A stretch of DNA of 64,000 bases from Candidatus Omnitrophota bacterium (GCA_041661345.1 JBAZUO010000001.1:11298-75297), one strand, 5' to 3'. Numbered from the stretch's first letter, positions 3,675 to 64,000 are shown. Notes: generated from the sequence alone by a model not told the origin. Translations and numbers: made by a program.

Positions 3675-3685
3675 TTGATTAAGAA

Positions 3686-4249
3686 ATGCGTACCTTTATA
3701 GCGATAGAACTTTCCGATGAAATCAAAGACATCCTCGACCGGATCCAGTCTCACTTAAAATATGCCGGCGCGGATGTGAAATGGATCGAGAAAGATAATA
3801 TCCACCTCACCTTGAAATTCCTGGGAGAAATCGACGATAATAAGTGCGAAAAAGTCAAATCAGCCCTGGACGAGATCGCCAAATCTACAAAACCTTTCGA
3901 AATATCGTTAAAAAATATAGGCGCATTCCCGAAGATAGAATTTCCGCGAGTCATCTGGGTAGGTCTCGATAAAGGCGCGAAGGAATCGACAGAGCTTGCT
4001 TCAAAAGTAGACGAAGTGCTTTCGAAACTTGGATTCGACAAGGAAGTCCGCGCATTCGCCGCGCATCTTACCATCGGCCGCGTTCGCTCACCGAAGAATA
4101 AAGAAGAGCTGCAGGAAAGGGTCAATTCGTTTAGTAAACAGTTTACAGCAGACAGTTTACAGTATATAAATTCTATTTACCTACTCCAAAGCACACTCAC
4201 GCCTAAAGGCTCTATCTACACAAAACTTCACGAAGCAAAACTTTCTTAA
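3686..4249 (+). CDS. thpR: RNA 2',3'-cyclic phosphodiesterase (2H phosphoesterase, ThpR/LigT family)
   Basis: 187 aa with two H-x-T-x motifs, HLTLKFLGE and HLTIGR. Confidence 0.8.
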   Translation: MRTFIAIELSDEIKDILDRIQSHLKYAGADVKWIEKDNIHLTLKFLGEIDDNKCEKVKSALDEIAKSTKPFEISLKNIGAFPKIEFPRVIWVGLDKGAKESTELASKVDEVLSKLGFDKEVRAFAAHLTIGRVRSPKNKEELQERVNSFSKQFTADSLQYINSIYLLQSTLTPKGSIYTKLHEAKLS

Positions 4250-4319
4250 AAAATGCCCGGGTGCGGAATTAAGGGATGCTAACTCGGGGGAAAGCACCCT
4301 TAATCCCGTTGACCCGGGC
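4248..4319 (-). terminator. candidate intrinsic terminator of the giant gene
   Basis: Read on the minus strand, nested stems GCCCGGGT/ACCCGGGC and GGGATTAAGGG/CCCTTAATTCC are followed by ATTTTTT. Confidence 0.45.
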
Positions 4320-4324
4320 AAATT

Positions 4325-4385
4325 CGTGAAGTTTGCGTGCAAATTTCATCCTGAGGCTGCGACGAACAGGAGCAGCCGAAGGATC
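4325..4385. repeat. R3 double-hairpin element, copy 1
   Basis: CGTGAAGTTTGCGTGCAAATTTCATCCTGAGGCTGCGACGAACAGGAGCAGCCGAAGGAT aligns with 45406..45467 and shows compensatory changes. Confidence 0.6.
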
Positions 4386-4392
4386 TCGTTCG

Positions 4393-7300
4393 TTATGCCG
4401 CTATTAGTAAAGTCTCCATTCTGATCCTGCTTGCCTTCAATTCCTCGGGATCCATCCTGCATAAGCCCTTGAACCTCAATATCGCTTTTAGCGCAAACGC
4501 GATATTGTTCCATTCCGCATTATCGAGCAACTTCAAAATGTCATCTCCGATATCCGACCCGGAGAGTATCTTGTAATAGTAAGCGATCGCTTGCCTGTTG
4601 CCGGACATGATCGCCCTGGCAAGGCCTATTACACCTTGTAAATATAAATAATTCTCACCTGTCAATTTGTCACCCACGATCAGGACGCTGGCCTTCGCAT
4701 AATTCCTCTCTTCGTCAGACTTCCATATTTCACTACCGTCATTATCTTCTTTACTCAAGACAACCGCCAGTTTATCCTTAGACGGATTTCTCTTGATTTG
4801 TGCCCGTATTTCTTCAGGACTCAATATCGCTATCGCGCCGCTGTCCAACACCGGTTTCAGCGCGATCTTGATTCCCTGTTCCAGCTCGGTCCTGTCACCG
4901 TTTTCGATAAACAGATTCTCCGACAATAATACCGCGGCGCCGCTTCTGATATTAACATCTTTGAATATCTTGTCTATCAGATCGATAGTGCTGGAAACAT
5001 CGTTTTCTTTAACTAAAGCCTCTGCGGGTATAGTTGAAATTGTAGGCGCGACGCTTGGCTCCGGCATAACTTGCGGTATTTCACTAAAAGGCTGCGCGAG
5101 CGGCGCGCCCGGATGCGCTATCGTTTCCGTCGCCGGCATTGTCGGTTCAGTGCCGAGTATCTCATTCGAACCTTTATCGACCGTCGCAGTTGAAGCCGGC
5201 GCAGATTGCCGTGAATTAACGGCTTGAGCGGCATTTTCTTTGGCGCCAGAGGCATCTGTCGTCGGTTCGGATTGCGGAGACGGCGGCTGCGAAACCCATT
5301 GTTGCATCCAATTCCACTCGTCTTGACCAAATCGTTCGATAAAATCGGCCTGCCCGGAACAGCCCATTCGTTGCATCAATGAGAGCGCGTCCTCCTGAAG
5401 CCCATTATGCACTTTTGCTGTATTGAATATATTATCAGTAAGATGATATTTATGATCAAGCGGATTAGGCCCCGAAAATCTTATATTGCTTCCAATCTCT
5501 GATATCAAGAACCCAAGCACTTTGCGCGGATCTTTATCATGTGGTGAATATTGACCTATAAGGTCTTCCGAATATTCATCTGCCAGCCTATTAACCGCAG
5601 TATCAAATATTTTTTTCTCCATCCCTAAGCCAAAAGGATCGTAATCTGTCCGAAAAGATAGTGGGTCCGCTTCTAGCTGTCCGGCTATGTTTTCGGCTAC
5701 GCTCTTCCGGAAAGGCGGCACCATCATCGGGGTCAAATCTCGTACACTGCCAACTGCATTATCGGTATCACTAGCGTCCATAGCTTTGGCTGCCAAGTTT
5801 GCTATCTCTTCGCCATTAGACATGTCGCCGAGGACTTTCTTTATACCTTGCGCATAACCTCTATGTTTGGCTTCTGCGGCAAATGCCAAGTCATATCTTC
5901 CTAATTTATATAGCGTCTCGGCCATCGGACTGCGGAATTGTCCTATGTTAATAGGCGCCGGCGTAAATATCGAATTCACCGGTATGTGCAACAGGAAGCC
6001 TGCCATGCCCATTGCGCTTGTGATTATAAAACCGCGGCGTCTAGCAAAATTGTTAAGTTCGATATAAATATTCCATATGATACGATCAAGATCGGTCCAG
6101 TATTCGGACGGGATATTTCTAAGGCGGTCTATTTTAGCCATCAAAGAATAGACATAAGCTTCTTTTTCATCAGGATGGATACTAAGAATAGCGGTAGCTG
6201 CTATCTTAGAGGATTTACGCAATAAGCGATTTTTATCCGGGAAAAATCTGGTCGAGATACTTCTCTCTGCCCTCTGGCAGGCATCAGATATTAGGTTTTC
6301 TAATTTCGACGGCGGTTCACTCGGCGGCGCGTTGTATCGTACGTTCTTACCGAATCTCTGCTCAATATCAGCGCGGTCTTCATCGCGCGTAATCCGTCGA
6401 GTCTCTGCCGCTCGTGCCCGCATCTTTATTACATCAGGTGATATATTAATTTCCTGCTCCGCCGCGGCTGGGATAGGAGTAAGATCGGCATTGTGCTCAA
6501 AACTCATTCCCAACGTGCTAGCCAAAGATTTGAGCTTCTCACATATAAGGGGCCGAGCTTTACGCAGCGGATGCGATTCCGGAATGCTGAGTCTGGGCCT
6601 TAGCTCTATGCTACCACTATTTTGCGAGAGAGATATCTTAGCAACTAAACCGGGCACTTCATCTTTATCCGATAGATCGTTTGCATCATAAAATTCTACC
6701 GTTATATAATCACCACTGGCTCCAGATACACACCAAGAAACGCTAGGATGCTCGCTGAACGATTCTTCCTCAGGCCCGAAATGTCTTTTAAGATACGCAA
6801 ATCGATCGCGTTCATAAGCAGCCCTGGCGAACTTTATTAATCCTGTAGTTTTCGGTTTGCTAGCTTCCGCCGCGGCTGGGGCAGCGTTTTCTTCCGCCCT
6901 GTTATACGTACTTACCCATCTCCACAGCTCGTCTTCGTATTCTTCTTCGGTCTTCCAACCTCCATAATAACCGATATCATAATAGCCTTTTATTTCAAAA
7001 AATAGAAAGTTCGCAAAAATAGACAAATCACCATAGTCTCTTAGTAGGCGAACCTGCTTAACATGAAGTTTCTTTTCGTCAATCCGGCCTTCCGAATCAA
7101 GCAATTCCAAAAGAAAAGAATAAGTTTCCTTAAGGTCCATTTTTCTTGTGTGCATTCCGCGATCCTTCCAATACTCAGAAAGATTACCGATCGAAGATTG
7201 CAAATAAAGAATTTCTACCATGTAAGCTTTCGCCTCGCTTTTAATTTTACTGTACATGAGATGCCTCAAGGCGCGACGGTATTCCTTACCGCGATCATCC

Positions 7301-10300
7301 AGTGAATAAGCAGCTTTTATTCTTTCTTCATACTCTCTAGTTGCTATTTTCAATTGGTAGAACATCTTTTCATACCAGTCGTAGGCGTCGTCCATGCGAC
7401 GGCGTTGATCCGGCAATAAATGAACGAGCTCGTGAAGAAGCCACGCTTTGAGCTCAAGATCATCCAATTCACTCAATGCCTCCTCGTCAATCCAAAGCAC
7501 ATTGTTTTCTACCTTCATGAGGAATCCACCATAGCCCACAACTCTGATTCTATCTTCCACAATCAATGAGCGAGCTATGTGCTCCAATTCCTCAATTTCC
7601 GAATTTGTTAAGCCCGTTTTTTCAAGACAACTGCGTTCTTTAATTAATTCGAGGATCTGCGCATAAACTTTGGCTTGCGGCTTCGCCACGGCTTGAGCAA
7701 GTCTTAATACGCCCGCCTCTTCAACTACATCGCCTGCCGTCATTAGTTTTTCTATTTCAGTTTCGACCTGCGCAGGCTGTATGTTTCCCTTAAAAGCTGC
7801 TACTACCTCCCTACGCTGTTTCGGGCCGGTTGATAACATTTCCTGTATGTGGTAAGGAATATTCGCCATCCCGCCAAGGCTCGGAGGGACAACATCAGGG
7901 TTAAGCTTTTCTCCCTGCTCCGCCGCGGCTGGGGTGGCACTTTCTGGACCGTCCCTATATCCTTTCCTGGAGATAGCGCCATTTAGTTTATTTATAGGCG
8001 TCTTATAAAATTTGGCTCTATAAGGTGCGCCGGATTCGCTTTCATCTGTAAATCGGACACGCCCCCCGCCATCTCCTCCACCATCGTGATACTGGTAGAA
8101 TAACTCCCTCGCTTCTTCTTCATCATAAGGAAAACTCACCTTATAAGAATCGGATTTTTCCCTGTTATAATCTATTCCGAATAAGAAGGTGCCTTTTTCA
8201 TTATAAAAATCTTTTTCGGTAAAAGGGTTTCCATTATAATAATCCGCGACTGCAGCGCTAACTTCTTTTCTTAACGTATCTTCTATGTATGCATTTACGT
8301 AAGCTATCCCATCAGTAAATTCATATGCCGTGTCAACTCCGGACGATAATTCTCCGAAATCGAAGATATAGATGTGGCCAGTTTCCGGATCGACTCCGTA
8401 GTTACCAAGAGGATCACCGTAATCTACATCTACCGCACCCCGTCTGAAGATATCTATAAACAACTGTTTATACCTATCTATCAAACCTTTTGCCTCATCG
8501 ATACGTCCGGTTTTGATATTTTCCATTATGATATCCTTAAGCGGTATTACCTTTTTCTGGATTATAGCCACATCCGTTTTCTTTGTCCCTATACCCTCAA
8601 CAAAAAATTTGAATTCGTTTTCGCCGGGTTTCGTGGCAGCTATAACAAGAGTAGGAACTGCTAATCCGTTCAGCTTTCCCTGAGCAACTAACCAGCCCTC
8701 CTCAAGCCATTTGTCTATTACAATTTTACGCCTGGCCTGATCGGGATATGTTTTAACAATATATTTGAAAGACGGATCAACGCCTATGAAAGAAACGAGG
8801 TGCTTCCCCTCATACCACTGTCGCAGTATATTGCTCACGGGCTGAGAAACCTCTGTAGATACCCTTGTCTCAAGCAGCGATTTTATCTCTTCAATTAGAA
8901 ACTTTCCGTCTACCTCGGATGAAAATGCTATGCCGAGATCCATAAGTGTTCGTCTGCACTCGCCAAGATTACCGGTAGATTTTCTCAGTTTTCCGATAAC
9001 GCCATTATCTACGCTCTTAAGATCTCTCCGGAACTCATCTAATTGGTCCCACTTGCTCATAGTAAGCGGTGCCCATAAGATGAAGGTATTGTAGAGTCCG
9101 TGGGTAACTATATTGGCAATTTGGTGGATTCTTAAAGAATATGCGAGTAGTAGCCCTAATTCAGGGGGTATACCGAAATTTGAGGCAAGCAGCTGCATAG
9201 TAATAATAAGCGAATACGTCATTGCGATCCAGACAGCACCTATGCCCATTGAACGGCTCATCCAGTGATACCAGCGTATATTCTCATGCTCTTTCAAGAA
9301 TTGAACCAGGCTAAACATTTTAGATAAATCATACCTTTCGACAAAAGCCGCATACCATCCTATAAGGAATTTCTGAAAGTAAGATAACTCCTTGTAGCTT
9401 AATTTCGGATCAAGCCCAAAGCACCCGAGCGCATTTACAAATGTTTTAGGAAGAATAAGACCTGTGGTACCAGTTGTCGGCTCCGCGACTGGCGATTCCT
9501 TGGAATTCCGGAATATATAAATTGGGCAACCGGTATCACGCATAGCGCAAATTAAAGTTCCGCATGCGTGAATCATCTTTTCTATCCTCGGGGCTTCTTT
9601 AGAGTTTATGTCGGGGAAAAAACGAATCACCGCCAACCCTGTCGACGCGGTAATTTTCTGTATCACTTTAAAAATCGTCGTATCCTTTTCCTCCCCTGCA
9701 AATTCGGAGCTCATAACCCCATTGGCCATCAGCAATTGAACACTGCCTTGCTGGAGGTATTGGCCTGCTTCCGCAGCGTCAACATTATATATTTTTACAC
9801 GGCCCCTTAATTCTGGGAAATGCTCCCAAATTTCTGAGGCAGAGATTTTGACACAAAACGGCGAATAGTTAAAAAGATGATAAACTGAGGCATTCGGACA
9901 AAGCTTGACGATTTTTGTAAACTCTTCATAAGAAAAACCAAAGACAGCAACCTCTTTGCTGCGGGTAAATTCATCCAAATGGATATCTGCTCTCTTTATA
10001 AGCATCTCATTTTCCATCTCAACAAAATCTGGAGCTGAGAAATCAGGGTAATCAGACTCTGACCTATCACTAACCGGTGTCACCATAAGAGGCATCCATT
10101 CAGGTGCCAATTGGGAAGATTCTGCCGGCAATCCCGGCCCTGTCTTCGACGTCGGAGATGCGGCTTGGGCTGGCGACTCTGCGACGGGCAAAGTCCTTGT
10201 CCTGATCTCCTCAAAATGTTCTTTCAGCCGCTGATTAATTTGATCACGGTAATCGAACGCTTCTTTGTTACGGGATACGGAGTCACGACTTGTAAGAATT

Positions 10301-13300
10301 TCATTAGCGATGTCATAGAATAATTCAATATCATCCATACAGAGCCGTCCGTCCGAGTGATCGGAAGCTGAAACCGTAAGACGGACTATCGTGCCGGCGG
10401 ACAATCTATCCCCTTCAGCAAGAAGCAACATTGATATAATAGGTAATTCCCGGTATTTTTTACCTTCTTTGATTTCCAGCTTAAACAGAACTCCCGGAAA
10501 TTCCATTATCTTTTTCACGACAGATTCTAAAAGTTGATATGGGAAAAGGTGATGCTGCGTATTGAGCTCTAATTCTCTGCTGATACACATTCCGGCTGTT
10601 TTTGCCGCTATAGGCGGCTGCACGGCAGGCGATTCGGCTTTACCGGCTCCTGACAGGGTATCCCCCTGTAGGATGGCAGCTTTCTCGGGAACAGTATTAG
10701 CCGCGGCTGAGGATGGCGTTTTATCTTCAAAGTTTCCTGATAGCTTGTTGTATACGAAAATTCGACTTATCGCTTCAGGAGGCACATCTTCTCTTGTTGT
10801 ATCAGAGTCATCATATCCCGGAATTTTAGATTTTTCGCATTGAAGCACCACAATTACAAAATTCTCTTGAGGCTGGCCATACTTATACATGCCAAAAGCC
10901 CAAAAAGCTGTCTTCTTGGGATCTTGCTCAAAATTATAATAGTTTTTGTCAGTAGTTAAGTCGGATATTAACAATCCATCATGAAAAATTTTATTAAGGT
11001 CCTCTACGGTTAACCTCATACCGCGGTACCTAAATTTCTCACTGTCTGCAAGCATTGATGCCGGCATCGATTTCTTGCTTCCAGATAAAAAAGAACTTGC
11101 AACATCATCCCAGGTTCCACCAAATTCTGCTAAGTCGCGATAAATATGCACTGGTTCTATCATGACTTGCGGCGTCGGTCTTTTGACTGGCGGTTCCGCG
11201 GCCGAAGCGGTTTTTTGCTGATTAATTTCTCCGTACGTTTGTGGCACATTTAAACTAACTGGCGGTTCTTCCACTGAGGGGAATTTGGATTCAACCGGAT
11301 CCTTATGCTGGCGCGGTTCCCTCCTGGATCCCGGCGCTTTCTTATCGCCGCGCTTCGCGCTCGGCACCGATGCAAGCGTAATTGGGGACGCTTTCATTTC
11401 CGAACTTGATTTTGAAAGCGTCCCTGAATCTATTTGTGCAAAATACCCTTCCGCCATCATCTTATCCGCGCGACCAAGGTATCCGTTATTGCGTAAATAG
11501 GCAGCGCCGTTTTCATAATCGGTCTCGGTCACTCTAGCAGTGCGCTCGTATTCCGGAGCTTCCTGATCATACGGATCCACATCTATTATTCCCCATTTCT
11601 CCGTATGAGCCACATATTGGAATGGCTGATCTTCCGCTTTGCTAAACATACCCATAAGCGATGCCTTCTCGCCTAAAGACCTTAACAGGTAAATAACCAT
11701 GCAAGCATTACTCAAGCATCTTCTAAGATCGAAACTTCTTACCGCAGTTTTGACCTTAGTTATTAATTCAGCGTCTTTCTTTGCATTAGGCGCTTCCCGT
11801 AATAGAATAGCCTGGGACGCGTTACTTTGGGACTGGCCACTCACATCCGCTGCGGTTGGAACAAAACTTTTCATCTCCCTATATTGCGCAAACTCTTCCG
11901 GCGTAATCAGGGACGTTTTCATTTCTAAGTTCAAGCCTGTCCCCCCTGGCAAGGTTGCCGGGGACACATCTGATCTTGATTTTGAAAGCGTCCCTAAATT
12001 CTCCACCGCGGATGGGGCTGTCAACTCTGCGGCCGACGGCTGTCGCAGGGTGTCCCCTTGTGGGATGGCACCTTTTTTAGCGTTTGCGGCTTGCGCGGAT
12101 AATTCTTCGATGATCTTCCCGTTAAATAGGGCGGCTTGTTTGGGATCTATATTCAGCGGCACGCCGGCATTGTCCCTATTAAGCTCTGAACTATTAGTTA
12201 GGAAAGAAACTTCGCTTCTTCCGGCTATTGAGATAATATAAGGTTTCATCGCTTCAAATCGCTCCCGGGCCTCAGAATCTTTCATGCCAGGATTAAGGCC
12301 TACTATGATATCTATATCGAGATCGGCAACGCCTCCGCTTATCTCCATAGCGGCCAATTCAGCAAGGTCGTGCTCCTTCTCCGGAATCACTACATGTTTT
12401 AATGGTATCCTGGTAGCAGGGTTAAGAGCATCTAAAGAATGCGCAGTGTCAAGCCTATCTATGACGCCAGTAGTAGCCAAATAACCAAGATAATCGCCGC
12501 TGGTTAGATTGGAGTATCCAAATTTTACCTCTTCTTGCCAATCGATATCTTTTTTAGAGCCCATTTTCTTGCCCATATACGACCCAAAATCTCCATGAGC
12601 ATCAAGGTGTCTCCATACAACACCTCCGTTATTAATAATATTTTGCATTGACGGGCCATAATGCTCAAAGGCAAAGGAATAAGACAGGTTGTGCTGGCCG
12701 CCCCAGTAAATCCTCTTGCCATTTGCCAATATTATAATTACAAAATAACCATTACCTACTTTATATTTTTTGTCATTTATGGACACTTCGATAACCGGAT
12801 ATATTACAGATTGCTGTTGTTCAATTTCATATTGCCTCTGTTCGATATTAGCGGCGCCAAATGTAAACGGCTGATCCAGAGAAATGGTAATAGGTACAGC
12901 GGCTGATATGGCATCTTTTGGACTGTCATTATTTTTCTCAACCTGATCTCTTAAGAATACTTCAAAATCCTTTACCTTTATCTTATTTCGCTCGCCTGCG
13001 GGCCTTACAATCCGTCTGTAATCGACAATATTATCCGGCGTAAGAATAAATGGCCCATATCCGGATTTCATTAAAATATAGTTCAAGACAAAACTTGCGG
13101 CCCTTTTATTACCGTCGTTAAAAGGCTGGAGGTTGACTAACCTTACAAAAACGTGGGATGCCGCCTTAATAGGGTCTTGCTCTATCTCGGCGCTAAACTT
13201 ATCGGAAAACATATATTTAAATACTCTTCTGGTATCAGATATGTTATCGCCCATTTCGGCGCCATAACTACCGGCGTTTTTAATTACACCGCTGCTGCCT

Positions 13301-19300: not shown

Positions 19301-22300
19301 TGATAAAATTGGGCCGCATATGTTATACGCCGTTTCCAGTAATTCAGAACTTCCTGCCTCTTTTCACCCCACCTATAAGCAGGCAATCCCCAATTCTGCC
19401 CATCATCATTAAACTGGTCTGCGGGAGCGCCGGCATTTTTTTCGAGGTCGAACAACTCCTGGTTGGCCCAGACGTCGGCACTGTTCTTTGACGGATATAT
19501 CGGCAGGTCTCCTATCAGGAATTTATTAAGTTCATCGGCATGTTTTTTTGTCTTAAGCGCTCTCTTGTAATATAGCCACTGCGCATATTTATAAAATTCG
19601 ATCTCTTTACTATGTTCCTTCTTGAAACGCTCGATGTCCTCCTTATTATTCGGATTCCCGGGATCCCGGTATTGCTCCTCCCACTCGCGCCAGTATTTAC
19701 CTTTATGATGATCTAGTAAAGTATGGAATAGCGCATAATTGGCAATCTCTTCACGAAATTCGTAATTATTTACATAGCTTTCAAATTGTTTAAATTCTTC
19801 ATTCTTCGGATCGGCGCTGCACTTGGAACAAAATTTTTCGAATTCCCGACTCAACACGTATTCCTTAAAAGCATATAAAAGCTGATAGTCGACTCTTTGC
19901 GAACTTTTAGCGTCAGATAATTTTAATTTAACATATGCCTCTATCTTGTTTTTTAATATTTTTTCATCCCGCACTACGATAACTCCTTGTGCAGCCATTT
20001 CCCTGATAAGTGACGGGCTTATATCCGCACCGGGGTCTATATAGTGAAGTTTAAGGTATGATTTTATGAAATCCGATTGCGTGGCTACAAACGATTCTAT
20101 ATACGCTTCGCGTTGTTTTTTATCTATCATCTCATCAAGCGGCAGATTCATGATAGCATTGTTAGCAAAAAGGCTTATGCTGTTATATGGGCTTGGCTCG
20201 CTTGACGACGTTTGATTCGTAGGGAGCAAAAATGCCATGTCGTAATCTTCATGCGCCAGATAATCTACGAATTTATCTAATGATGCCAGGTCTCCGACGC
20301 CATCGTCGCCTTCACGCCGCATAGAAAATAGCGGGCATAGAAGCCCGCGCCGCTTTTTTTCAGTCCACCAGTATTTTACCGGAGCGGCCTTATTGCTCTG
20401 CGATAAAACATTTGCAAGATACGGCAATCCGACAACCGACGCAGAAATTATTGCGCAGAAATCGGACCAGGTAAAATGGCCGGACAAAAGTAATTTGACT
20501 AATAAAACTGCTATAGCCGCAAGAATAATGAAACTCTTGATAAAATATGTGATCGAGAAATTTTCGAGACTGAAAATGCTGGGGGTGCTTGATGGCAGAT
20601 ATATCTTCGTGCTCCACGGAGGAAGATTTATCTCTTCTTCACGGCCTTCTACGGGTACTTTAATATTGCCTGTAAAATTATTGCAATAATTTACTATTAT
20701 GATCGCTTTTTTGCCGTTATATTCACGCTCAAACGCTATAACGGTATCCGGATTGCCGATATCAAGAACTTTACAACTGCCGAATCTAAATATGTCGTGA
20801 TATTGTTTATTATGTATGACGCCTCCCAATGTCTTATATTGGTCAATGACTTGCTGATTATCCTGCTGAGGCGGGCCGCGGATGAGATTTGCCTTAGCTA
20901 TCCAGTCTGAATGTCCTTTCTCCTGCCCTTCATATACTAAAGAACTCCCTGGAAGTGTATACAATAATGTCGCGGCCGCAAGGGAAGCCGGCATGGAATC
21001 TTTCTCGCCTATACTATGTTTTAATAGATTGATAATCCTGTCTTCCGAGTCATGATTTTCAAGATACTTTATGAAATTTTTCTTCCCAGACGCACTCACA
21101 TAATCTCTGAGAAATCTTTTTATACCCTGAACATCCCTATTTACCATACATTTCAGGAAATAGTCTTCATAATAGTAATCAAACCCTAAATCAGCGGCAA
21201 GATTACTATGCCCATGGCTTCCGTACATCTCGCCGAGTATCACAATGTTCGGGTATTTTTTCTTCAAATCTTTTATGGTAACCTTCCAGAAATCCTCTCC
21301 GGGATAGATTTTATTGAATTCTTCTTCCGACAGATGACTAAACCAGTTCCATCTTATATAATTCTTTGTGGTAAGAAATACCATGTCGAGCCGTATCCCT
21401 CCACCATTAGTTAACTCGGCGGCTTTAAACAAGACGCTTCTCATATAATCACGCATGGCTTTTTGAGTATAGTTAAATTGTACGTCATCTATCCATGGCA
21501 GGCCTTTCCCGTCGTTATATCTCACATCTCTTCCATAATAGAATACATTTTGAGAGGTTGGTTCGGGGATAGTCGAATCTTCTTTTCCGCAAGTACCGGC
21601 CTGAAACACCGGATTGGGGGTATTTTCCGGTTTCAATTTTAGGCGAGTCCTATTCCCTTCTATCCACAGCTTGGCTTCATCTTCGGAAAGATTTGATGAA
21701 AGGCTCATGAAATATTCCGGGCATTCTTTGAATAACTGACTGTCTACCGCCATATGATTAGGCACAACATCGATCATGACCGCAATCCCAAGCTTATTTG
21801 CGCGTCTTACGAGATCTCTGTATTCTTTTTCGCCTCCCAAATCTTTCGCTATTTCATAATCCGTTATCGCATATGAACTTGCGGCGCGCTCCATAGGTTC
21901 CTGATTTTTATTGCGCCAATAATCATTCACCTCTTTCGAATATGGGCTCGTCCGCCACACACCCATAAACCACAATATGTTAGCTCCTGATTCATCTCTA
22001 TACCTCATAAGGTCTTCATCGGTTATCTGACTGAAATGCTTACCCGTCGCTCGCATATTTATTTCGTATATTATTTCATCACCCTTTTCGGCCTTAGATG
22101 CTGATCGCCGCTTAAATAATTTACCTAAAAACACGGATGCAAGCAGCGCAGGCATTATAAAAATGTAAGGATGTCCGGATAACACTGCTGCCGCGACAAC
22201 GCCTATTATGACGGCCGATAAGACACAAGCGCCCGCATATTCGGACTTGAAAAACCTCTTTAAAGACTCAGCCGCTTTTCTAAACGGCTCCAAGGCCTTA

Positions 22301-25300
22301 TCCTTCGCAATTTGCGCAAATATTCTCTCCAGTTTTCCCATGTCCGTATACGTTCCGAATTTACCACTCCTCATCATTTCATAATTACTAGGAAACAAGT
22401 TTTCACGAAAATATCGTGATTCCTCCCGGTTAAAGTAAGGCTCTATCGCAACGGTAAAAAGATATTCATAGAGAAGCGGTTTATCGGATTCTACACGATC
22501 CAACACCTCTCTTGACAGAAGTGCAGTCTGGGGTAGAGATTTGTCTAAAAGTTTTTGCATAGCCGCGGAGAAACGATCAGTTTCCGCATTACTCGAACGC
22601 GTCAAAGTGTTAAAACCCAATATCCATGTTCGCGGCTTCCATATTCTTACCGGTTCGTTCAGGACAACAGCATCAAATTCTTTTACATTGAATTCAGCCC
22701 TGGAAAATTTATCAAGCGCCTCCAATAGCCCCTTTATTTCTTTTTTGAGAAGCGGATTCTTCAAATGAGCAATTCTGTTCCAAATAAAAGAGACGAAATC
22801 ATATCTGCCCCTCAATTCCAGATACTCTCTTTTGGCCGGGCTTAACACCTGTCTTTTGATTTTATCAGATACATTTTTTGCATCACTATAAACTGCCAAC
22901 GGCCTTTTCTCGTACACGCCGTCTTCCGGCATCATCTCCTTTTCAAGCGATGTAATACTGTAATTATAATCTATCTCTCTAAGCTCCAGGTTCTCAAATC
23001 CATTGTATCTTTTCAGAAATGTATTCGCATACTCCTCGGCTTCATCTATTTTTTTTAATTCCTGCCTTGAGATAGCCGCCTGCCTGTGCGAGGTGATAGC
23101 GCGTTCAATCGTATTTTTTAAAGGAAATCTTTCAATAATTTCTCTTGCGGTATCTATTTCCGGCCTCGTCATCCGCCTGGCAAAACCCATACCCGTCAGA
23201 TATTTTTCAAGCTCGCCTTTTTTTGAATCTCCGCCATTCTCAGTTCCCATGAAGTCATCCCAAAACTTATATCGCAATGACGCGGCAACAAGATTCCTGT
23301 AGCAGTAATACGGCAGAAAACCTCCTTTATCGGTAAGCTGAACGCCTTCCGTTGCGAGCTTCATGCTTAGATAAGCCTTCCGAGCCCATGGCCGCACCCC
23401 CATCCCCTCGTATATGTCCAGAAGTTTTCCGCTTTTTGCGAGTGCTTCTCCAAAATGAATTTTATCGCCGCTCTTCCTGCCCTGCCTAAGAAGCAGGTCT
23501 ATCTCTTTTTCGAGATCTATCGCGAGCCACAGCATTTGCCCGTATCGCGCAAGAGTATCTCTCTCCATAAAATGCTCCAGGCTCTTCCTGAAATCCTCCA
23601 CATTGATCAATCCGCTATTCTCTCCGCCCTCTTTCCTGGTTTTGAAAAAGTTTCTGGTTAAGTCGTTCCTTATAACCCGGGTCTCTTCTTCCGATTTAGA
23701 TTCACTGTCTATAAACCTCTGGCCGTAAATAAGAGCAGCAGCTATCTCCGGCTCGCTTGCTTCCTCGATAAAACGGGAGGAGAAGAATATGACAGACCTA
23801 TTCCTTCCGACATGCATAAAGCGCACGATATTGTAATCCGGCTCGGAGAAGAGAAGCGGCGTCTCTTTGTCGAGCTCTACGATAGTCGTATATTCCGAAT
23901 TTACAAGCATATCTTTCAGGTATCCATAACCTATCTTTGATGCCTGCGATTCCCATATCCGCCTGGCCCTGCGCACCTTATCGGCATGAGGGGTATTTTT
24001 TCTGTCTTCGGGCTGAGTTTCGGCATATTGCGGCATTATTCCATTACGGTATATCTGCTTTTCCTTATCTTCGCTTTCCATAAGAATCCCTTTAATGGAA
24101 TAATGAACAGCGCTATCTCCCCTGGTATGCTCGGAGATACCCATGCCGGTAAAGACTATATCTTCGGAGGGCTTTGTAATTTTGAATTTTTCCGCCATCA
24201 AATGTTTTAAATAGCCATTTTCCTCAGACGGATTGTTCCTATTCGCCGTCAAATAAAACAATAACAGGCCATAAAAATTTATGCTGGCATGCAGAGTCAA
24301 TTTACCGTTTTTTATAACGTTAAAGGATTGGACGATAAGGTCTTCTTTTTCGACCATCTTGCTTCTGAGCTCACCTGCGCCATGACGTCTCAGTATTTTT
24401 TCACAGTAATCGGTAAATTCACCCGTATCGTCGAAATCTTCTTTCAATCTCAGAAGAAAAATCCTATACAACGGATCAAAAAATGTATCTGTATACTCTT
24501 TCGGATTGGATAGGATATCATACAGTGAGATCGTATTATCGTTCTTGTAAATCCTTATAAGCTGCAGAAGCCTGTCGGTCAATTCCGTAAGTTGAGCCGA
24601 ATTTCTTATAGCTTCTATGTTCAATCCGTATACATTATCCCTGTAAAGCCTTTCGCGAATCAGCTTACGCGCAAGACAGATAAAGCCGTATAATAAGAGC
24701 ATAGTTGCGCTGCTTATTACAAGAGCCGTGCGCAAACTGTCAGGTGACCATGCCCGCAGATTAGATTCGGCCAACGTCACTACAAGCGTTCCCAGGCTCA
24801 ATGCGGCGGCCGACACGATTGTCCACCATGCGTATCTATAATATTTATCCAGGCGCGCAAGGTCCTTCTTCATATCAGCCATATTAGCCGCCGGCTTAAG
24901 AACGGATTCTACTGCTTTACTTGGATCGGCCTGTCCGTTACTATCAGGTATTAGTATGCGCTGTCTCCATAAACCAGGGAATATCTCCTCGGCCGTTACT
25001 GTAGCTAACCTGCTATAGGGCTGAGCGGATACCTTTGTCGGATCGAAATAACGCAGAAGCCCCCAGCCGGGAACACGGATACGAACCGCCCCTATTTCAT
25101 CATTTGCGCATCTCTCATCGCTGTAAAAAATATGGTTATCCTGTATCCACCCTATGATATCTTCGCGATTTAATATACTTTTTATTGTGGGTATCGATGG
25201 ATGAGAAATAAAATCTTTTTGAGATTCTATCAGACGCTCGATGAATACACCCTCAGCCGTTTCTTTCTTACCTTTCTGATGGAATAGCGTATCGGGAGCC

Positions 25301-25434
25301 AGCTTATCGCTTGAAGATCGCACAATAAATGAATCCGGGTGCGACCAGGCGATATCCTGGGCAAGGAAAGTTACAATTAGGACAATAGATATTATCCTAG
25401 TTACAAGAGGAAATTTTTTGTAGCGGTTATTCAT
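4393..25434 (-). CDS. giant 7,013-aa multi-domain protein with several hydrophobic (putative TM) segments; contains GH13, GH77, GH13, Fic/Doc-like and other enzyme-like modules
   Basis: The ORF track shows 21,042 nt with no in-frame stop. The N-terminus has a hydrophobic anchor, FPLVTRIISIVLIVTFLAQDIAW. Module motifs are detailed in the findings. Confidence 0.85.
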   Translation of the reverse strand: MNNRYKKFPLVTRIISIVLIVTFLAQDIAWSHPDSFIVRSSSDKLAPDTLFHQKGKKETAEGVFIERLIESQKDFISHPSIPTIKSILNREDIIGWIQDNHIFYSDERCANDEIGAVRIRVPGWGLLRYFDPTKVSAQPYSRLATVTAEEIFPGLWRQRILIPDSNGQADPSKAVESVLKPAANMADMKKDLARLDKYYRYAWWTIVSAAALSLGTLVVTLAESNLRAWSPDSLRTALVISSATMLLLYGFICLARKLIRERLYRDNVYGLNIEAIRNSAQLTELTDRLLQLIRIYKNDNTISLYDILSNPKEYTDTFFDPLYRIFLLRLKEDFDDTGEFTDYCEKILRRHGAGELRSKMVEKEDLIVQSFNVIKNGKLTLHASINFYGLLLFYLTANRNNPSEENGYLKHLMAEKFKITKPSEDIVFTGMGISEHTRGDSAVHYSIKGILMESEDKEKQIYRNGIMPQYAETQPEDRKNTPHADKVRRARRIWESQASKIGYGYLKDMLVNSEYTTIVELDKETPLLFSEPDYNIVRFMHVGRNRSVIFFSSRFIEEASEPEIAAALIYGQRFIDSESKSEEETRVIRNDLTRNFFKTRKEGGENSGLINVEDFRKSLEHFMERDTLARYGQMLWLAIDLEKEIDLLLRQGRKSGDKIHFGEALAKSGKLLDIYEGMGVRPWARKAYLSMKLATEGVQLTDKGGFLPYYCYRNLVAASLRYKFWDDFMGTENGGDSKKGELEKYLTGMGFARRMTRPEIDTAREIIERFPLKNTIERAITSHRQAAISRQELKKIDEAEEYANTFLKRYNGFENLELREIDYNYSITSLEKEMMPEDGVYEKRPLAVYSDAKNVSDKIKRQVLSPAKREYLELRGRYDFVSFIWNRIAHLKNPLLKKEIKGLLEALDKFSRAEFNVKEFDAVVLNEPVRIWKPRTWILGFNTLTRSSNAETDRFSAAMQKLLDKSLPQTALLSREVLDRVESDKPLLYEYLFTVAIEPYFNREESRYFRENLFPSNYEMMRSGKFGTYTDMGKLERIFAQIAKDKALEPFRKAAESLKRFFKSEYAGACVLSAVIIGVVAAAVLSGHPYIFIMPALLASVFLGKLFKRRSASKAEKGDEIIYEINMRATGKHFSQITDEDLMRYRDESGANILWFMGVWRTSPYSKEVNDYWRNKNQEPMERAASSYAITDYEIAKDLGGEKEYRDLVRRANKLGIAVMIDVVPNHMAVDSQLFKECPEYFMSLSSNLSEDEAKLWIEGNRTRLKLKPENTPNPVFQAGTCGKEDSTIPEPTSQNVFYYGRDVRYNDGKGLPWIDDVQFNYTQKAMRDYMRSVLFKAAELTNGGGIRLDMVFLTTKNYIRWNWFSHLSEEEFNKIYPGEDFWKVTIKDLKKKYPNIVILGEMYGSHGHSNLAADLGFDYYYEDYFLKCMVNRDVQGIKRFLRDYVSASGKKNFIKYLENHDSEDRIINLLKHSIGEKDSMPASLAAATLLYTLPGSSLVYEGQEKGHSDWIAKANLIRGPPQQDNQQVIDQYKTLGGVIHNKQYHDIFRFGSCKVLDIGNPDTVIAFEREYNGKKAIIIVNYCNNFTGNIKVPVEGREEEINLPPWSTKIYLPSSTPSIFSLENFSITYFIKSFIILAAIAVLLVKLLLSGHFTWSDFCAIISASVVGLPYLANVLSQSNKAAPVKYWWTEKKRRGLLCPLFSMRREGDDGVGDLASLDKFVDYLAHEDYDMAFLLPTNQTSSSEPSPYNSISLFANNAIMNLPLDEMIDKKQREAYIESFVATQSDFIKSYLKLHYIDPGADISPSLIREMAAQGVIVVRDEKILKNKIEAYVKLKLSDAKSSQRVDYQLLYAFKEYVLSREFEKFCSKCSADPKNEEFKQFESYVNNYEFREEIANYALFHTLLDHHKGKYWREWEEQYRDPGNPNNKEDIERFKKEHSKEIEFYKYAQWLYYKRALKTKKHADELNKFLIGDLPIYPSKNSADVWANQELFDLEKNAGAPADQFNDDGQNWGLPAYRWGEKRQEVLNYWKRRITYAAQFYHGVRIDHLLGLCSEWLVEEGKKALEGKFYPALPADMEKAGRETITELASAALASNLLIIGEDLGERPENVRNMLDELSLKLPNLYLYNVIGWRDSGIATRPHMLAVSETHDTEPTFAGRYENFSDRERRRTAEFANAYGVSIGEKESPQFAEDRMYTVMDEADFSCRSIQGKLKVSPRISRINEPGKVHDKNWNWRMPVTFEALLAKKDEVVPGNVEIPAELLQQAELMPADKLWQTCEQKLPEETRSYRESLSRQERGSVLVSVNARLFQSFDDIVKELEALSGMGIKHVYLLGAYRESEVSRKQSQGEQDDNVHNFYYDRDEEGRVISVVRNGSHDTTDFIASAFSIPDNFLLNPKLGGWEGFRRLLQRAKELKIGISLDLVAHSTAIDCKWLKDESLQEGDDYWYVHKDISYEDNEKLFALSAMRNLPDKDNAGAWNSAHVELVELFDRILLANPGYFLHCSTKLNRWILVAHGTESAMRNRGEYWRDMALLDVTNPNVRRALIDTAVQFAREGVEGFRCDCAMNTVKDGGGGFLDMWWHHPNLAGPRDINWYWPRELWDEMIQAVRTINPKALFIAEAYWLFDALERCGFDYISQTHVFNLLNKGRIEQLKEYLMNEYIGEQFKRAYSIISHDDEPSAIKRYGDLPKEVSRILQNQFLAIAAMPGMPIVLIEQIKGYFARATAKWYQLSLVDRPRPQIQELFRKIISIAQDPLLRQGQLFVFNTSHPGLLSFARYDRDNATNKVRSAVVVGNYADWDISSQIPIGEAAGQLGISAVPSQYFAFTDRLTGEVYLRSGRELRDNGLYIMLPANSYHLFMVQELDLPDGRYKSLADMHTRYKGNGLSFQDIFTLMRDNGLKFDFPCTAGNAGKAVALKILADNLPASEIGSVLESANAHTGRISFAEGADTGAEIDALKKQYPDDEKMQRFCRVLEAAKKFFDPTLRGKVIHFTVTDHESSSRQAGNDIYLELGANPIWEIGSLEGRETTSTIMWVVDRAYTSQLPALFQGEGFKEGVQAISVLTDLYNIFDKDVHGLIVAESEGPYPFLSMGKELEYFCMYGERDKAAGILKRRLREDNFIDRLGAIDRAVSFKDEAIEAELSAFVESPENRINRLYLQRIIVPKLAKNGTPACRARIRDFIAGELRKDDNQITARMAIEGAACFPDAELVELLLTKAAPYTKDVTTALLNAAQSSNDMYSYLCKGLENRDFYQQAAIIGALSYLVEYKTVRVSQQKEFLDALNRTFANVKSYLLLFHIRHAASRLKNEELVMSAYRRILGKADMPLIAGHTAEDKFFDGAVTRAIMLMPDIWRSAVIRKSGLTDMPDEAFIKFLDTAKVFADKIKDETVQKSVTNVRVNALLQRYSNLTKRFPDSKEEIYKAEDKFMELLSSGEGYSYLFEAMTILGNNYEASDEITVSKRKRAEFLLKFLPFKAPSWRWSSDDYNALISMRAVRLLYSLGAFREDAARDRAKPEESVTSAIDGFNLNQTIRFSDGRKDVPMARIILDELKQLFFLGLTLTPDLRSAILRMGRGYYGRQYEGEILEFIRETEETQKAESDRKKGVGAAFEGDAAFSVDRTSLSSLIAGQGLKPDASQDEIDRAILEAVNDPKGNDRLLQILGFTATQRQSMAQALIPESSKGRMVLFEKGRNFAQIKYLVRVPGIKEGAIANARDKIRLSIACQDRYKQGFGKFVALAYSVGKNDNEDFIHRKIDDIFLDYSPLLRDKEFLEAMSKYFEHDPAILLSLTHIVWMEIRAGPAEDIVPFIDVLTKLSKVRKGLAMPYIPKYKLEAIKYLGILSGNNSDLVPVNMIVPNLLIALASYPQKDEFYTTAYETLVSIARSSSLNPFFAFARSEDPSLAKLAAQAVAEARPGSSASENILTVKKNPDQAAKPGTGVGLSAASLRDMSSSRVWHSKRVRSQIDIEAVGRNLHEIQRDISYINQQLDPDQEFGETDFVPSLVTQYCAAVRSFNDFILNGPMTAERMEEKYQTFHATLGSSGVIKNAGSYGAEMGDNISDTRRVFKYMFSDKFSAEIEQDPIKAASHVFVRLVNLQPFNDGNKRAASFVLNYILMKSGYGPFILTPDNIVDYRRIVRPAGERNKIKVKDFEVFLRDQVEKNNDSPKDAISAAVPITISLDQPFTFGAANIEQRQYEIEQQQSVIYPVIEVSINDKKYKVGNGYFVIIILANGKRIYWGGQHNLSYSFAFEHYGPSMQNIINNGGVVWRHLDAHGDFGSYMGKKMGSKKDIDWQEEVKFGYSNLTSGDYLGYLATTGVIDRLDTAHSLDALNPATRIPLKHVVIPEKEHDLAELAAMEISGGVADLDIDIIVGLNPGMKDSEARERFEAMKPYIISIAGRSEVSFLTNSSELNRDNAGVPLNIDPKQAALFNGKIIEELSAQAANAKKGAIPQGDTLRQPSAAELTAPSAVENLGTLSKSRSDVSPATLPGGTGLNLEMKTSLITPEEFAQYREMKSFVPTAADVSGQSQSNASQAILLREAPNAKKDAELITKVKTAVRSFDLRRCLSNACMVIYLLRSLGEKASLMGMFSKAEDQPFQYVAHTEKWGIIDVDPYDQEAPEYERTARVTETDYENGAAYLRNNGYLGRADKMMAEGYFAQIDSGTLSKSSSEMKASPITLASVPSAKRGDKKAPGSRREPRQHKDPVESKFPSVEEPPVSLNVPQTYGEINQQKTASAAEPPVKRPTPQVMIEPVHIYRDLAEFGGTWDDVASSFLSGSKKSMPASMLADSEKFRYRGMRLTVEDLNKIFHDGLLISDLTTDKNYYNFEQDPKKTAFWAFGMYKYGQPQENFVIVVLQCEKSKIPGYDDSDTTREDVPPEAISRIFVYNKLSGNFEDKTPSSAAANTVPEKAAILQGDTLSGAGKAESPAVQPPIAAKTAGMCISRELELNTQHHLFPYQLLESVVKKIMEFPGVLFKLEIKEGKKYRELPIISMLLLAEGDRLSAGTIVRLTVSASDHSDGRLCMDDIELFYDIANEILTSRDSVSRNKEAFDYRDQINQRLKEHFEEIRTRTLPVAESPAQAASPTSKTGPGLPAESSQLAPEWMPLMVTPVSDRSESDYPDFSAPDFVEMENEMLIKRADIHLDEFTRSKEVAVFGFSYEEFTKIVKLCPNASVYHLFNYSPFCVKISASEIWEHFPELRGRVKIYNVDAAEAGQYLQQGSVQLLMANGVMSSEFAGEEKDTTIFKVIQKITASTGLAVIRFFPDINSKEAPRIEKMIHACGTLICAMRDTGCPIYIFRNSKESPVAEPTTGTTGLILPKTFVNALGCFGLDPKLSYKELSYFQKFLIGWYAAFVERYDLSKMFSLVQFLKEHENIRWYHWMSRSMGIGAVWIAMTYSLIITMQLLASNFGIPPELGLLLAYSLRIHQIANIVTHGLYNTFILWAPLTMSKWDQLDEFRRDLKSVDNGVIGKLRKSTGNLGECRRTLMDLGIAFSSEVDGKFLIEEIKSLLETRVSTEVSQPVSNILRQWYEGKHLVSFIGVDPSFKYIVKTYPDQARRKIVIDKWLEEGWLVAQGKLNGLAVPTLVIAATKPGENEFKFFVEGIGTKKTDVAIIQKKVIPLKDIIMENIKTGRIDEAKGLIDRYKQLFIDIFRRGAVDVDYGDPLGNYGVDPETGHIYIFDFGELSSGVDTAYEFTDGIAYVNAYIEDTLRKEVSAAVADYYNGNPFTEKDFYNEKGTFLFGIDYNREKSDSYKVSFPYDEEEARELFYQYHDGGGDGGGRVRFTDESESGAPYRAKFYKTPINKLNGAISRKGYRDGPESATPAAAEQGEKLNPDVVPPSLGGMANIPYHIQEMLSTGPKQRREVVAAFKGNIQPAQVETEIEKLMTAGDVVEEAGVLRLAQAVAKPQAKVYAQILELIKERSCLEKTGLTNSEIEELEHIARSLIVEDRIRVVGYGGFLMKVENNVLWIDEEALSELDDLELKAWLLHELVHLLPDQRRRMDDAYDWYEKMFYQLKIATREYEERIKAAYSLDDRGKEYRRALRHLMYSKIKSEAKAYMVEILYLQSSIGNLSEYWKDRGMHTRKMDLKETYSFLLELLDSEGRIDEKKLHVKQVRLLRDYGDLSIFANFLFFEIKGYYDIGYYGGWKTEEEYEDELWRWVSTYNRAEENAAPAAAEASKPKTTGLIKFARAAYERDRFAYLKRHFGPEEESFSEHPSVSWCVSGASGDYITVEFYDANDLSDKDEVPGLVAKISLSQNSGSIELRPRLSIPESHPLRKARPLICEKLKSLASTLGMSFEHNADLTPIPAAAEQEINISPDVIKMRARAAETRRITRDEDRADIEQRFGKNVRYNAPPSEPPSKLENLISDACQRAERSISTRFFPDKNRLLRKSSKIAATAILSIHPDEKEAYVYSLMAKIDRLRNIPSEYWTDLDRIIWNIYIELNNFARRRGFIITSAMGMAGFLLHIPVNSIFTPAPINIGQFRSPMAETLYKLGRYDLAFAAEAKHRGYAQGIKKVLGDMSNGEEIANLAAKAMDASDTDNAVGSVRDLTPMMVPPFRKSVAENIAGQLEADPLSFRTDYDPFGLGMEKKIFDTAVNRLADEYSEDLIGQYSPHDKDPRKVLGFLISEIGSNIRFSGPNPLDHKYHLTDNIFNTAKVHNGLQEDALSLMQRMGCSGQADFIERFGQDEWNWMQQWVSQPPSPQSEPTTDASGAKENAAQAVNSRQSAPASTATVDKGSNEILGTEPTMPATETIAHPGAPLAQPFSEIPQVMPEPSVAPTISTIPAEALVKENDVSSTIDLIDKIFKDVNIRSGAAVLLSENLFIENGDRTELEQGIKIALKPVLDSGAIAILSPEEIRAQIKRNPSKDKLAVVLSKEDNDGSEIWKSDEERNYAKASVLIVGDKLTGENYLYLQGVIGLARAIMSGNRQAIAYYYKILSGSDIGDDILKLLDNAEWNNIAFALKAILRFKGLCRMDPEELKASRIRMETLLIAA

Positions 25435-25618
25435 TCTTTCTATCTATTCTTTTAACATGGACAAAATAAAAAACCAGATCGCCAAGCTTCAACTTCTAGG
25501 CTATCTGGTCTTTAATCAGGAATTTGCACAGATATTCCGACTGTGTAATGCTTTCCTAAAGACCCTTAACTCCCCCGAGTTAAATACGTCAGGGATCCTA
25601 GAAAATTATATTATGAAG

Positions 25619-25647
25619 ATTTTATCATATAAGATAAGAGTAGTCAA
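25619..25647 (-). promoter_or_regulatory. candidate promoter of the giant gene (TTGACT-17 nt-TAAAAT on the minus strand)
   Basis: -35 at 25642..25647 and -10 at 25619..25624. This leaves a leader of roughly 180 nt before ATG 25434. Confidence 0.4.
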
Positions 25648-25666
25648 GTTGCATACTCTGACTTTT

Positions 25667-26687: not shown

Positions 26688-26691
26688 ATCT

Positions 26692-63984: not shown

Positions 63985-64000
63985 GTTGTGCAGGGCCTCC

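Follow-up and report, generated by a model that had tools for sequence, protein, structure and literature searches.

A 7,013-residue multi-enzyme protein of Candidatus Omnitrophota, encoded at a conserved locus, with conserved ends and an interior that differs between genomes

The 64,000-nt stretch of DNA analysed here (the window), from a Candidatus Omnitrophota bacterium (GCA_041661345.1, JBAZUO010000001.1:11298-75297), contains an uninterrupted open reading frame (ORF) for a protein of 7,013 amino acids (aa), referred to below as the giant protein. This ORF is one real gene. Its product belongs to the multi-enzyme class of long Omnitrophota proteins, as a smaller member, and is not an Archaeovorin. 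Giant genes occupy the same locus in related genomes, where they resemble this one at their ends and differ in their interiors. We consider the prospects evenly balanced for a model in which the protein is a membrane-anchored enzyme carrier at the cell envelope or an interface, arranged as beads on a string and loaded with exchangeable cargo.

The gene has the following extent.

4393..25434, minus strand: giant ORF, 21,042 nt with the stop codon included in the coordinates, 7,013 aa, ATG start (ORF listing and translation)

Translation of this interval gives the terminal stop as the only one, and the 21-kb ORF of the initial annotation was recovered at exactly its coordinates. The start is well defined: the ATG is preceded, at a distance of four codons, by an in-frame stop, and the N-terminus can be aligned with those of relatives. 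Codon usage was scored against eight neighbouring housekeeping genes in tiles of 500 codons, the 14-codon 3′ remainder being too short for scoring. The score is positive in all 14 full tiles, so that coding extends over the entire frame. The other two frames score negative and contain 23-53 stops per tile. An open frame of 7,013 codons cannot arise by chance.

A search of related genomes for syntenic orthologues, which the initial annotation had proposed, found three other Omnitrophota loci (those of P0002, L006 and L007) with a giant ORF at the pgpA-ligT position. P0002, a protein of 4,816 aa from GCA_041643025.1, lies in the order ribF-rpsO-pnp-dut-bacA-ftsK-rodZ-miaB-pgsA-pgpA-[giant]-ligT-cinA-recA-recX, the same as in the window. 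It can be aligned with the giant protein only at aa 13-144 (29% identity), 306-811 (34%) and 6821-7013 (40%). Two of the conserved parts of the giant protein are listed here.

23002..24519, minus strand: N-proximal conserved block, aa 306-811, 34% identical to P0002 and also present in P0016
4396..5049, minus strand: conserved C-terminal module, aa 6796-7013, ending in ...LLIAA

L006 and L007, both metagenome-assembled genomes of Omnitrophota, were found by scanning species-representative genomes with the C-terminal module. In each the 10-kb upstream flank is taken up entirely by the giant ORF, which lies next to ligT-cinA/recA-recX and shares its last ~200-270 aa with the giant protein (51% and 39% identity, respectively). 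L006 additionally has two small shared modules at relocated positions. The cargo differs: L006 has an SF1 helicase, Fe-ADH, sigma-70 region 4 and a GNAT domain, and L007 has GNAT, a metallophosphatase and HATPase. All the positional orthologues keep a single unbroken frame of 3,500-4,800 or more codons.

Flanking proteins are colinear between these genomes and 57-85% identical (RecA 83-85%, PNPase 77%, FtsK 71%). Because only the ends and the N-proximal block of the giant gene are homologous while its flanks are conserved to this degree, these alignments show an interior that has been turned over much faster than the surroundings, with the ends kept. A characteristic C-terminus recurs more widely: among relatives of at least 1,000 aa, 32 of 61 end in Ala and 24 of 61 in AA or SA, as the giant protein does with LLIAA.

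The N-terminus and the interior also carry hydrophobic segments. Kyte-Doolittle analysis calls nine, a signal-like one at the N-terminus and eight further ones, and three of them precede aa 256. The membrane-type hydrophobic pairs described earlier are borne out by hydropathy; the segment at aa 6468-6486 was absent from that list.

25339..25434, minus strand: Sec-type signal peptide or anchor, aa 1-32, with the family motif ...RIISIVLIVTFLAQDIAWS followed by HP after a cleavage site predicted from the -3/-1 rule
aa 8-30: N-terminal hydrophobic segment (Kyte-Doolittle)
24670..24825, minus strand: hydrophobic helical hairpin 1, aa 204-255, segments 204-222 and 237-255
22114..22236, minus strand: hydrophobic hairpin 2, aa 1067-1107, segments 1067-1085 and 1089-1107, with the 3-residue loop SGH
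20404..20541, minus strand: hydrophobic hairpin 3, aa 1632-1677, segments 1632-1650 and 1659-1677, with the loop SGHFTWSD
aa 5398-5416: hydrophobic segment
aa 6468-6486: hydrophobic segment

Family N-termini have basic residues, a hydrophobic core and then, in many relatives, the motif F-[LF]-x-[NQ]-D-[IL]-x-[WF]-A. The giant protein's version reads TFLAQDIAWS, and the motif is compatible with the -3/-1 rule for signal peptidase I. The turns of hairpins 2 and 3 have an L-S-G-H motif in common (22159..22170 and 20476..20487; aa 1085-1088 and 1650-1653), which suggests that these two hairpins may be copies of one insertion element.

The clearest enzymatic assignments lie around hairpin 3. Two GH13 modules and a GH77 module had been named in the initial annotation, and all three hold: each scores above its Pfam threshold and has the catalytic D/E/D in place.

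20665..22077, minus strand: GH13 module 1, aa ~1120-1590, regions I-IV and catalytic D/E/D present
18679..20334, minus strand: GH77 4-alpha-glucanotransferase, aa 1701-2252, catalytic triad conserved
16825..18507, minus strand: GH13 module 2, divergent, aa ~2310-2870, D/E/D present, region I Asn replaced by Ala

GH13 module 1 matches PF00128 at 4e-25 (89 bits) and carries GIRLD, GEMYG and NHDSED as regions II, III and IV. The divergent module 2 reaches 31.7 bits with the same profile against a cut-off of 22, with GFRCD, AEAYW and SHDDE at the corresponding regions. Regions II-IV are thus retained in both, and the closest structures include the alpha-amylase chains 4GKL and 3DHU. The GH77 module matches PF02446 at 6e-86 (289-293 bits) and can be aligned with Thermus amylomaltases along ~400 residues (E = 1e-38 to 1e-40). 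In this alignment its RIDH, GEDLG and THD motifs fall at D293, E340 and D395, the catalytic residues in the numbering of the Thermus enzyme. The modules score well below the NCBIfam equivalog cut-offs, for example 299.6 bits against 556. Amylomaltase and the two alpha-amylase chains act inside the cell. Compared with MalQ (GH77) and the intracellular GH13 maltodextrin enzymes, the modules share the Thermus-like triad and GH13 regions II-IV. They differ in lying within a membrane-anchored chain of 7,013 aa, whereas those enzymes are free proteins of ~500 aa.

Beyond the alpha-glucan block the chain continues with a solenoid and two further recognisable modules.

14596..16137, minus strand: HEAT/ARM-like alpha-solenoid, aa ~3100-3613, about 28 paired helices (AlphaFold 2 model)
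12889..13569, minus strand: Fic-fold module with the degenerate motif QPFNDGNKRAAS, aa 3956-4182
12100..12888, minus strand: peptide-arginase-like module, aa 4183-4445, with GGQHNLSY, HLDAHGD, DLDIDI and TNSSEL

The long helical-repeat-like region noticed earlier is confirmed as a solenoid. Its AlphaFold 2 model is all-alpha (block pLDDT, the predicted local confidence, mostly 60-90), and its Foldseek matches are HEAT/ARM solenoids only (adaptins, CAND1, PP2A-A and importins, E = 7e-5 to 1e-3). The region is 41% identical to P0005; Pfam gives no HEAT match in the giant protein.

For the Fic/Doc-like module the fold stands: PF02661 scores 29-31 bits against a cut-off of 24, and the module can be aligned with FICD. 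The loss of the catalytic His had been overlooked. The motif reads QPFNDGNKRAAS against the family's HPFxDGNGRxxR (HxFx(D/E)GNGRxxR). The module is not to be filed as an active AMPylase, because its catalytic His is Gln and its last Arg is Ser. Gln also replaces this His in the relative P0007.

The arginase-like module is common to the giant protein and four other mosaic proteins, and GQHNLSY, H-x-D-x-H-x-D, D-x-D-x-D and TNSSEL are invariant across the five homologues. Their profile matches the peptide arginase OspR (8BRP) marginally (E = 0.005, 19.6 bits), with the metal motifs H-x-D-x-H-x-D and D-I-D-x-D aligned. Set against this likeness, a Pfam search of the module gives no match, and the GGDH of OspR is GGQH here. 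An AlphaFold 2 model built with four homologues is unusable (pLDDT 41.6). The arginase-like label is partly borne out, by the profile match and the invariant metal motifs, and finds no backing from Pfam or from the model.

About twelve small modules follow the solenoid, parted by linkers rich in Pro, Ala, Ser and Thr. When aa 4545-5744 were compared exhaustively with 1.84 billion representatives by HMMER, 75 matches were returned, and each module in that stretch has relatives. Nearly all of the matches sit within other proteins of 1,000-7,560 aa, with one module covered per match, and several of these dark module families occur almost only in other such giant or mosaic proteins. Self-BLAST shows no internal protein repeats, even between the two GH13 modules, so the giant protein is not a repeat protein. 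The further modules are the following.

11440..11787, minus strand: module B, aa 4550-4665 (search range 4550-4683), uncharacterised family with invariant Cys and Asp
10702..11196, minus strand: module C, aa 4747-4911, uncharacterised family with conserved YRGMRL
10186..10593, minus strand: module D, aa 4948-5083, uncharacterised family with two relatives (P0046 and P0079)
9481..10191, minus strand: module E, aa 5082-5318, possibly methyltransferase-like
9007..9420, minus strand: conserved hydrophobic module, aa 5339-5476, with GWYAA...E, HEN..W and HGLYN
8080..9060, minus strand: module F, aa 5459-5785, the most widespread module family, with invariant K, RRGVVDxD...N and FDFGD
7420..7434, minus strand: HExxH motif HELVH, sole copy, aa 6001-6005, inside module G (aa ~5864-6185)

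Three enzymatic labels of the initial annotation find no support beyond motifs in this region and stay at the level of leads. Module B had been called transglutaminase-like. Its Cys24 and Asp69 are invariant; the candidate His is variable (K, L, S and others in relatives), and the profile has no match in the PDB or Pfam. Module F had been called kinase-like. Across 17 sequences K103, D211/D213...N220 and F233-D234-x-G236 are invariant, so that kinase-type motifs are indeed conserved, but the 17-sequence profile has no PDB match, and Pfam gives none in the giant protein or its small homologues. Modules B and F are conserved families nonetheless. The HExxH module offers one motif and a sub-threshold match to PhageMetallopep (12.8-15 bits against a cut-off of 23.7, E = 0.027-0.13), and searches for its relatives returned none.

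A homologue of module E gives a weak Methyltransf_31 match, and this is all that Pfam returns for the small free-standing homologues of B, C, E and F. Two further candidates were dropped for want of Pfam support: an ADP-ribosyltransferase (YRG...QxE) for module C and a CPBP-type intramembrane protease (HGLYN) for the hydrophobic module.

Two readings deny that a single functional chain is made. One is an operon in disguise, in which several proteins would be translated from internal starts with no 7,013-aa product. The discrete, linker-separated modules fit it, as do the small stand-alone proteins of some families (P0058, 125 aa; P0083, 161 aa; P0013, 293 aa). Against it stand 7,013 codons without a stop, the single frame kept by the positional orthologues, and one promoter-like site with one terminator.

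25619..25647, minus strand: sigma-70-like promoter candidate, TTGACT-17 nt-TAAAAT with a TG extension (consensus match only)
~4249..4321, minus strand: hairpin with U6 after it, resembling an intrinsic terminator, between the convergent ligT and giant genes (folding)

Both sites had been reported before (the terminator as 4248..4319) and are present where they were placed, in keeping with the monocistronic gene then proposed. The hairpin is long and GC-rich (-66.8 kcal/mol, z = -5.7 on folding of the 3′ region); a simple terminator scan of that region finds no terminator, the hairpin being seen by folding only. Strong Shine-Dalgarno in-frame starts number 6, against 7.9 +/- 2.5 in codon-shuffled controls, a weak test in a genome that hardly uses such sites. 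Because these starts are no commoner than in the controls, we rate internal initiation low, and the disguised operon is very improbable. The start codons of 14 genes in the window have A-rich leaders with little or no Shine-Dalgarno sequence, so that gene or start prediction based on it is unreliable in this genome.

The other reading is an artefact, either an assembly chimera or a decaying, functionless fusion of gene fragments. The identical protein on record, 'MAG: 4-alpha-glucanotransferase [Candidatus Omnitrophota bacterium]', forms a singleton cluster and comes from a single 114.5-kb contig. An exact 40-mer of the ORF had no match in the metagenome collection, where aa 5864-6700 had no close relative either, and the Fic module is without its catalytic His. 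The frame would be broken by a random mis-join, however, and the coding signal is continuous. The catalytic residues of both GH13 modules, the GH77 module and the arginase-like module are intact, every dark module tested has conserved relatives, and in three other genomes this locus is occupied by a giant ORF whose ends are homologous. We regard an artefact as the least probable of the explanations.

The linkers of these proteins have a feature of their own. Each relative has a short peptide that recurs at domain-sized spacing between modules: R.SPSGE occurs 16 times, SSSP[VI] 17, KPFAPDMAK 6, GKSLGE 10 and RSE[VML]R 13, all with less than one copy in shuffles. More generally, an exact 4-mer recurs at least six times in 15 of 54 relatives of at least 1,500 aa and in 0 of 162 shuffles. 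In P0009 and P0011 the synonymous codons of the delimiters vary, so the delimiter is conserved there as a peptide. An adjacent ORF of 3,076 aa in the same genome uses the same delimiter (GKSLG). The lineage-specific delimiters RSExR, SSSP[VI], SPSGE, KPFAPDMAK and GKSLGE, and also ARMA, SLDNGG, LAFPD and APPAE, are found in P0005-P0011, P0016, P0031, P0050, P0052, P0056 and others. SLDNGG resembles a double-glycine (C39-type) processing site.

In the giant protein the corresponding peptide is P(A/S)AAE, with five copies (aa 4466, 4743, 5835, 6186 and 6322) against 0.14 expected.

12004..12057, minus strand: linker with two degenerate delimiters, PSAAE at aa 4466 and PSAVE at aa 4474
7919..7932, minus strand: delimiter PAAAE copy 1, aa 5835
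6866..6879, minus strand: delimiter PAAAE copy 2, aa 6186
6458..6471, minus strand: delimiter PAAAE copy 3, aa 6322

All three copies of PAAAE have one and the same DNA sequence (CCAGCCGCGGCGGA), a sign that linker DNA was copied recently, and the delimiters of the giant ORF may have originated as DNA-level recombination scars. That origin was rejected for P0009 and P0011 on the variation of their synonymous codons. Internal start codons, hinted at by the Met of KPFAPDMAK, were likewise rejected, since the Leu codons of GKSLGE and the Val codons of RSEVR are mostly non-start codons. Two DNA repeats were also seen in the linkers. A 31-nt direct repeat (11399-11429 and 11969-11999, 90% identity) encodes GTLSKS in two different linkers, and a 42-nt repeat (76% identity) extends two PAAAE junctions (PAAAEQ...[N/S]PDV).

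A tentative reading, to which we give clearly less weight than to the enzyme carrier, is that these are true bacterial polyproteins. Their cargo would be exchangeable, a dedicated pathway would recognise the N-terminal motif and the C-terminal -A(A) and then anchor or export the chain, and a protease evolving together with each lineage would cut at that lineage's delimiters.

The enzyme-carrier model itself can be set out as follows. A conserved chassis comprises the N-terminal Sec-type signal, the N-proximal block and the ~220-aa C-terminal module ending in -AA. The interior, made of cargo modules unrelated to one another, runs from the alpha-glucan block (GH13, hairpin, GH77, GH13), tethered by three hairpins, through the HEAT/ARM-like scaffold to the ~12 small modules. 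The signal would engage Sec, with the N-terminus translocated, and the hairpins would fix the chain to the cytoplasmic membrane, where it would carry enzymes at the envelope or a host interface. At that site the protein may cut and disproportionate alpha-1,4-glucans (maltodextrin or glycogen) and modify proteins, and the chain itself may be cut at its linkers. Its cargo is exchangeable: the positional orthologues have the same locus and chassis with different interiors.

Several observations weigh against this model. Function, processing and topology are all read from sequence, and more than half of the length of the giant protein has no assigned fold. No protease module was identified in it, and the delimiter is weak here, its five copies all lying in Pro/Ser/Thr/Ala-rich linkers of the C-terminal half. 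No secretion-system genes lie beside the giant gene in the window, unlike the case of the largest Omnitrophota giants. The topology is also ambiguous. A Sec-type signal with an even number of later helices would make the body non-cytoplasmic. Hairpins 1 and 2 have 5 Lys/Arg per outer flank against 2 and 0 in their loops, and by the positive-inside rule this distribution would place the body inside, in conflict with helix parity. The family's cargo, moreover, has a cytoplasmic character (GH77 amylomaltase, Fic, GNAT, helicase, sigma-70 region 4, dehydrogenases and radical SAM) and would be without cofactors outside a cell. Action inside another cell would reconcile the parity with the positive-inside pattern and with this cargo.

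Some of these observations lend themselves to a scaffold on the cytoplasmic face. The hairpins would then be inserted from the cytoplasm, with the body inside, and the protein would be a 'metabolon' tethered to the membrane, serving the producer's turnover of maltodextrin or glycogen and bearing regulatory and protein-modifying modules. The positive-inside pattern at hairpins 1 and 2, the 3-residue loop of hairpin 2, the nearness of the GH77 and GH13 modules to intracellular-type maltodextrin enzymes (amylomaltase, 4GKL and 3DHU), the cofactor-dependent cargo across the family, and housekeeping neighbours without secretion genes all speak for it. It is at odds with the family-conserved Sec-type signal and its signal peptidase I-like site, and with the parity of the three hydrophobic segments before aa 256, by which the body would be external. 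A metabolon with a housekeeping role should also retain its cargo across species, and here the interior is replaced between flanks that are 57-85% identical. We hold the cytoplasmic scaffold to be possible and somewhat doubtful, and prefer the enzyme carrier at the envelope or interface.

The initial annotation held that the protein matches no described system. That statement has to be withdrawn: giant membrane-associated multi-enzyme proteins with alpha-glucan modules and HEAT repeats have already been described for Omnitrophota. The Archaeovorins, whose type sequence is the giant protein of Velamenicoccus archaeovorus, exceed 30,000 aa (genes >90 kb). They combine many transmembrane helices and HEAT repeats with GT5/GT1, glycolytic enzyme domains, glycoside hydrolases, SecA_DEAD, C39/S8 peptidases and NUDIX (West-Roberts et al. 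2023, bioRxiv 10.1101/2023.11.21.568195). Their cleavage is suspected; according to the authors the cleavage points are unknown, and whether one chain or cut products are formed is open (bioRxiv 10.1101/2023.11.21.568195). The giant protein resembles them in its phylum, its numerous transmembrane segments, and HEAT repeats and glycoside hydrolases or sugar enzymes on one chain. It differs in its ORF of 21,042 nt against >90 kb and in having no type II secretion neighbourhood within the window. Whole-protein Pfam and NCBIfam scans find neither GT5 nor GT1 in it, and Pfam finds no SecA_DEAD, C39 or S8 peptidase or NUDIX, the first three even at E up to 5.

A survey of 916 proteins of at least 10,000 aa, 94% of them having membrane-spanning helices or a signal peptide, provides the closer comparison (Nielsen & Lui 2026, bioRxiv 10.64898/2026.06.07.730766). 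Its 'multi-enzyme metabolic cluster' class has a sugar-metabolism module set (starch synthase, GT1 and PGM) and HEAT/adaptin scaffolding, and is mostly sequence-unique; the flanks of 14 giants of at least 80 kaa (thousand aa) are rich in type II secretion/type IV pilus genes, GH2 genes and transposases (bioRxiv 10.64898/2026.06.07.730766). The giant protein shares with this class its phylum, many distinct enzyme domains without a dominant copy number (GH13 in two copies, GH77, Fic, arginase-like and at least eight further families), a sugar or alpha-glucan theme, an internal HEAT-like scaffold, and a signal peptide and/or transmembrane helices. With 7,013 aa it lies below the catalogue's 10,000-aa threshold, which is operational and not biological. 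It also has GH13-GH77-GH13 in place of starch synthase, GT1 and PGM, and housekeeping flanks in place of the secretion and pilus genes, GH2 genes and transposases of the largest giants.

MARTX and other mosaic effector toxins offer another parallel: a very large single polypeptide with conserved ends and interchangeable central enzyme modules, Fic-type ones included, and hydrophobic segments that could serve membrane insertion. In contrast to them, the giant protein has no RTX-type repeats and no cysteine-protease autoprocessing domain, no type I secretion genes lie in the window, and its cargo includes plain metabolic enzymes; delivery into another cell would be pure inference.

All named relatives are from Omnitrophota, and their names follow the recognised cargo (radical SAM, GNAT, FHA, HTH and WD40). 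The words linker, junction, delimiter and polyprotein appear in neither preprint, nor does 'mosaic' in Nielsen & Lui 2026, and the literature searched held no paper pairing Omnitrophota with polyprotein. A conserved locus with replaced cargo, a shared signal and C-terminal -A(A), and lineage delimiters are apparently unreported features.

The surroundings of the giant gene are of a housekeeping kind. On one side in the window lie recX, recA, cinA and ligT; on the other, pgpA, pgsA, miaB, rodZ, ftsK, pnp, ribF, truB, ligA, rib genes and smc. No secretion-system genes, including those for type II secretion or pili and for type I secretion, lie near it within the window. The pgpA-like ORF was read from the sequence itself.

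~25665..26060, minus strand: pgpA-like small ORF that separates pgsA from the giant gene and is too short for the 150-aa listing threshold
57568..64000, minus strand: second large mosaic ORF, cut off by the window end, at least 2,143 aa

PgpA occupies the equivalent position in the orthologous locus L008. With this ORF upstream, the true spacer before the giant gene is ~230 nt and not 660; a terminator-like hairpin lies near it at 26045..26021. The second mosaic ORF has a weak GH130 match (E = 8e-7) and HExxH-like and DFS-type motifs. It lacks the P(A/S)AAE delimiter and shows no BLAST similarity to the giant protein, and the C-terminal family module was not detected in it by BLAST or multiple alignment.

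Mosaic genes also occur elsewhere. At L003, L004 and L005 one lies directly downstream of an rlmN - 23S_rRNA_IVP pair, which points to this pair as a second conserved insertion site. L003 has two adjoining mosaic ORFs (10001-18223 and 18223-27453; 2,740 and 3,076 aa), each with its own signal peptide. Their C-terminal modules are 49% identical, and both use the GKSLG delimiter, in 10 and 7 copies. In P0004 (3,945 aa) a segment of >150 aa, with an HELFH motif within it, is near-exactly duplicated (RAGKDSSGNYPANMPSSNGSDRTPTVDEQAKIFKALGG...).

The giant protein is mid-sized, with orthologues between housekeeping genes in at least three other genomes, and this locus offers a natural experiment in the construction of such genes, with ends kept and cargo exchanged. 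The combination of lineage delimiters with a shared signal and C-terminal motifs makes the open polyprotein question testable in existing metaproteomes. Were the polyprotein reading true, enzymes would be released or arrayed at the host interface, and the interior at the fixed pgpA-ligT site would be re-stocked much faster than the genomes diverge. The intact active sites of the three alpha-glucan modules provide a route to what the sugar theme of these proteins serves.

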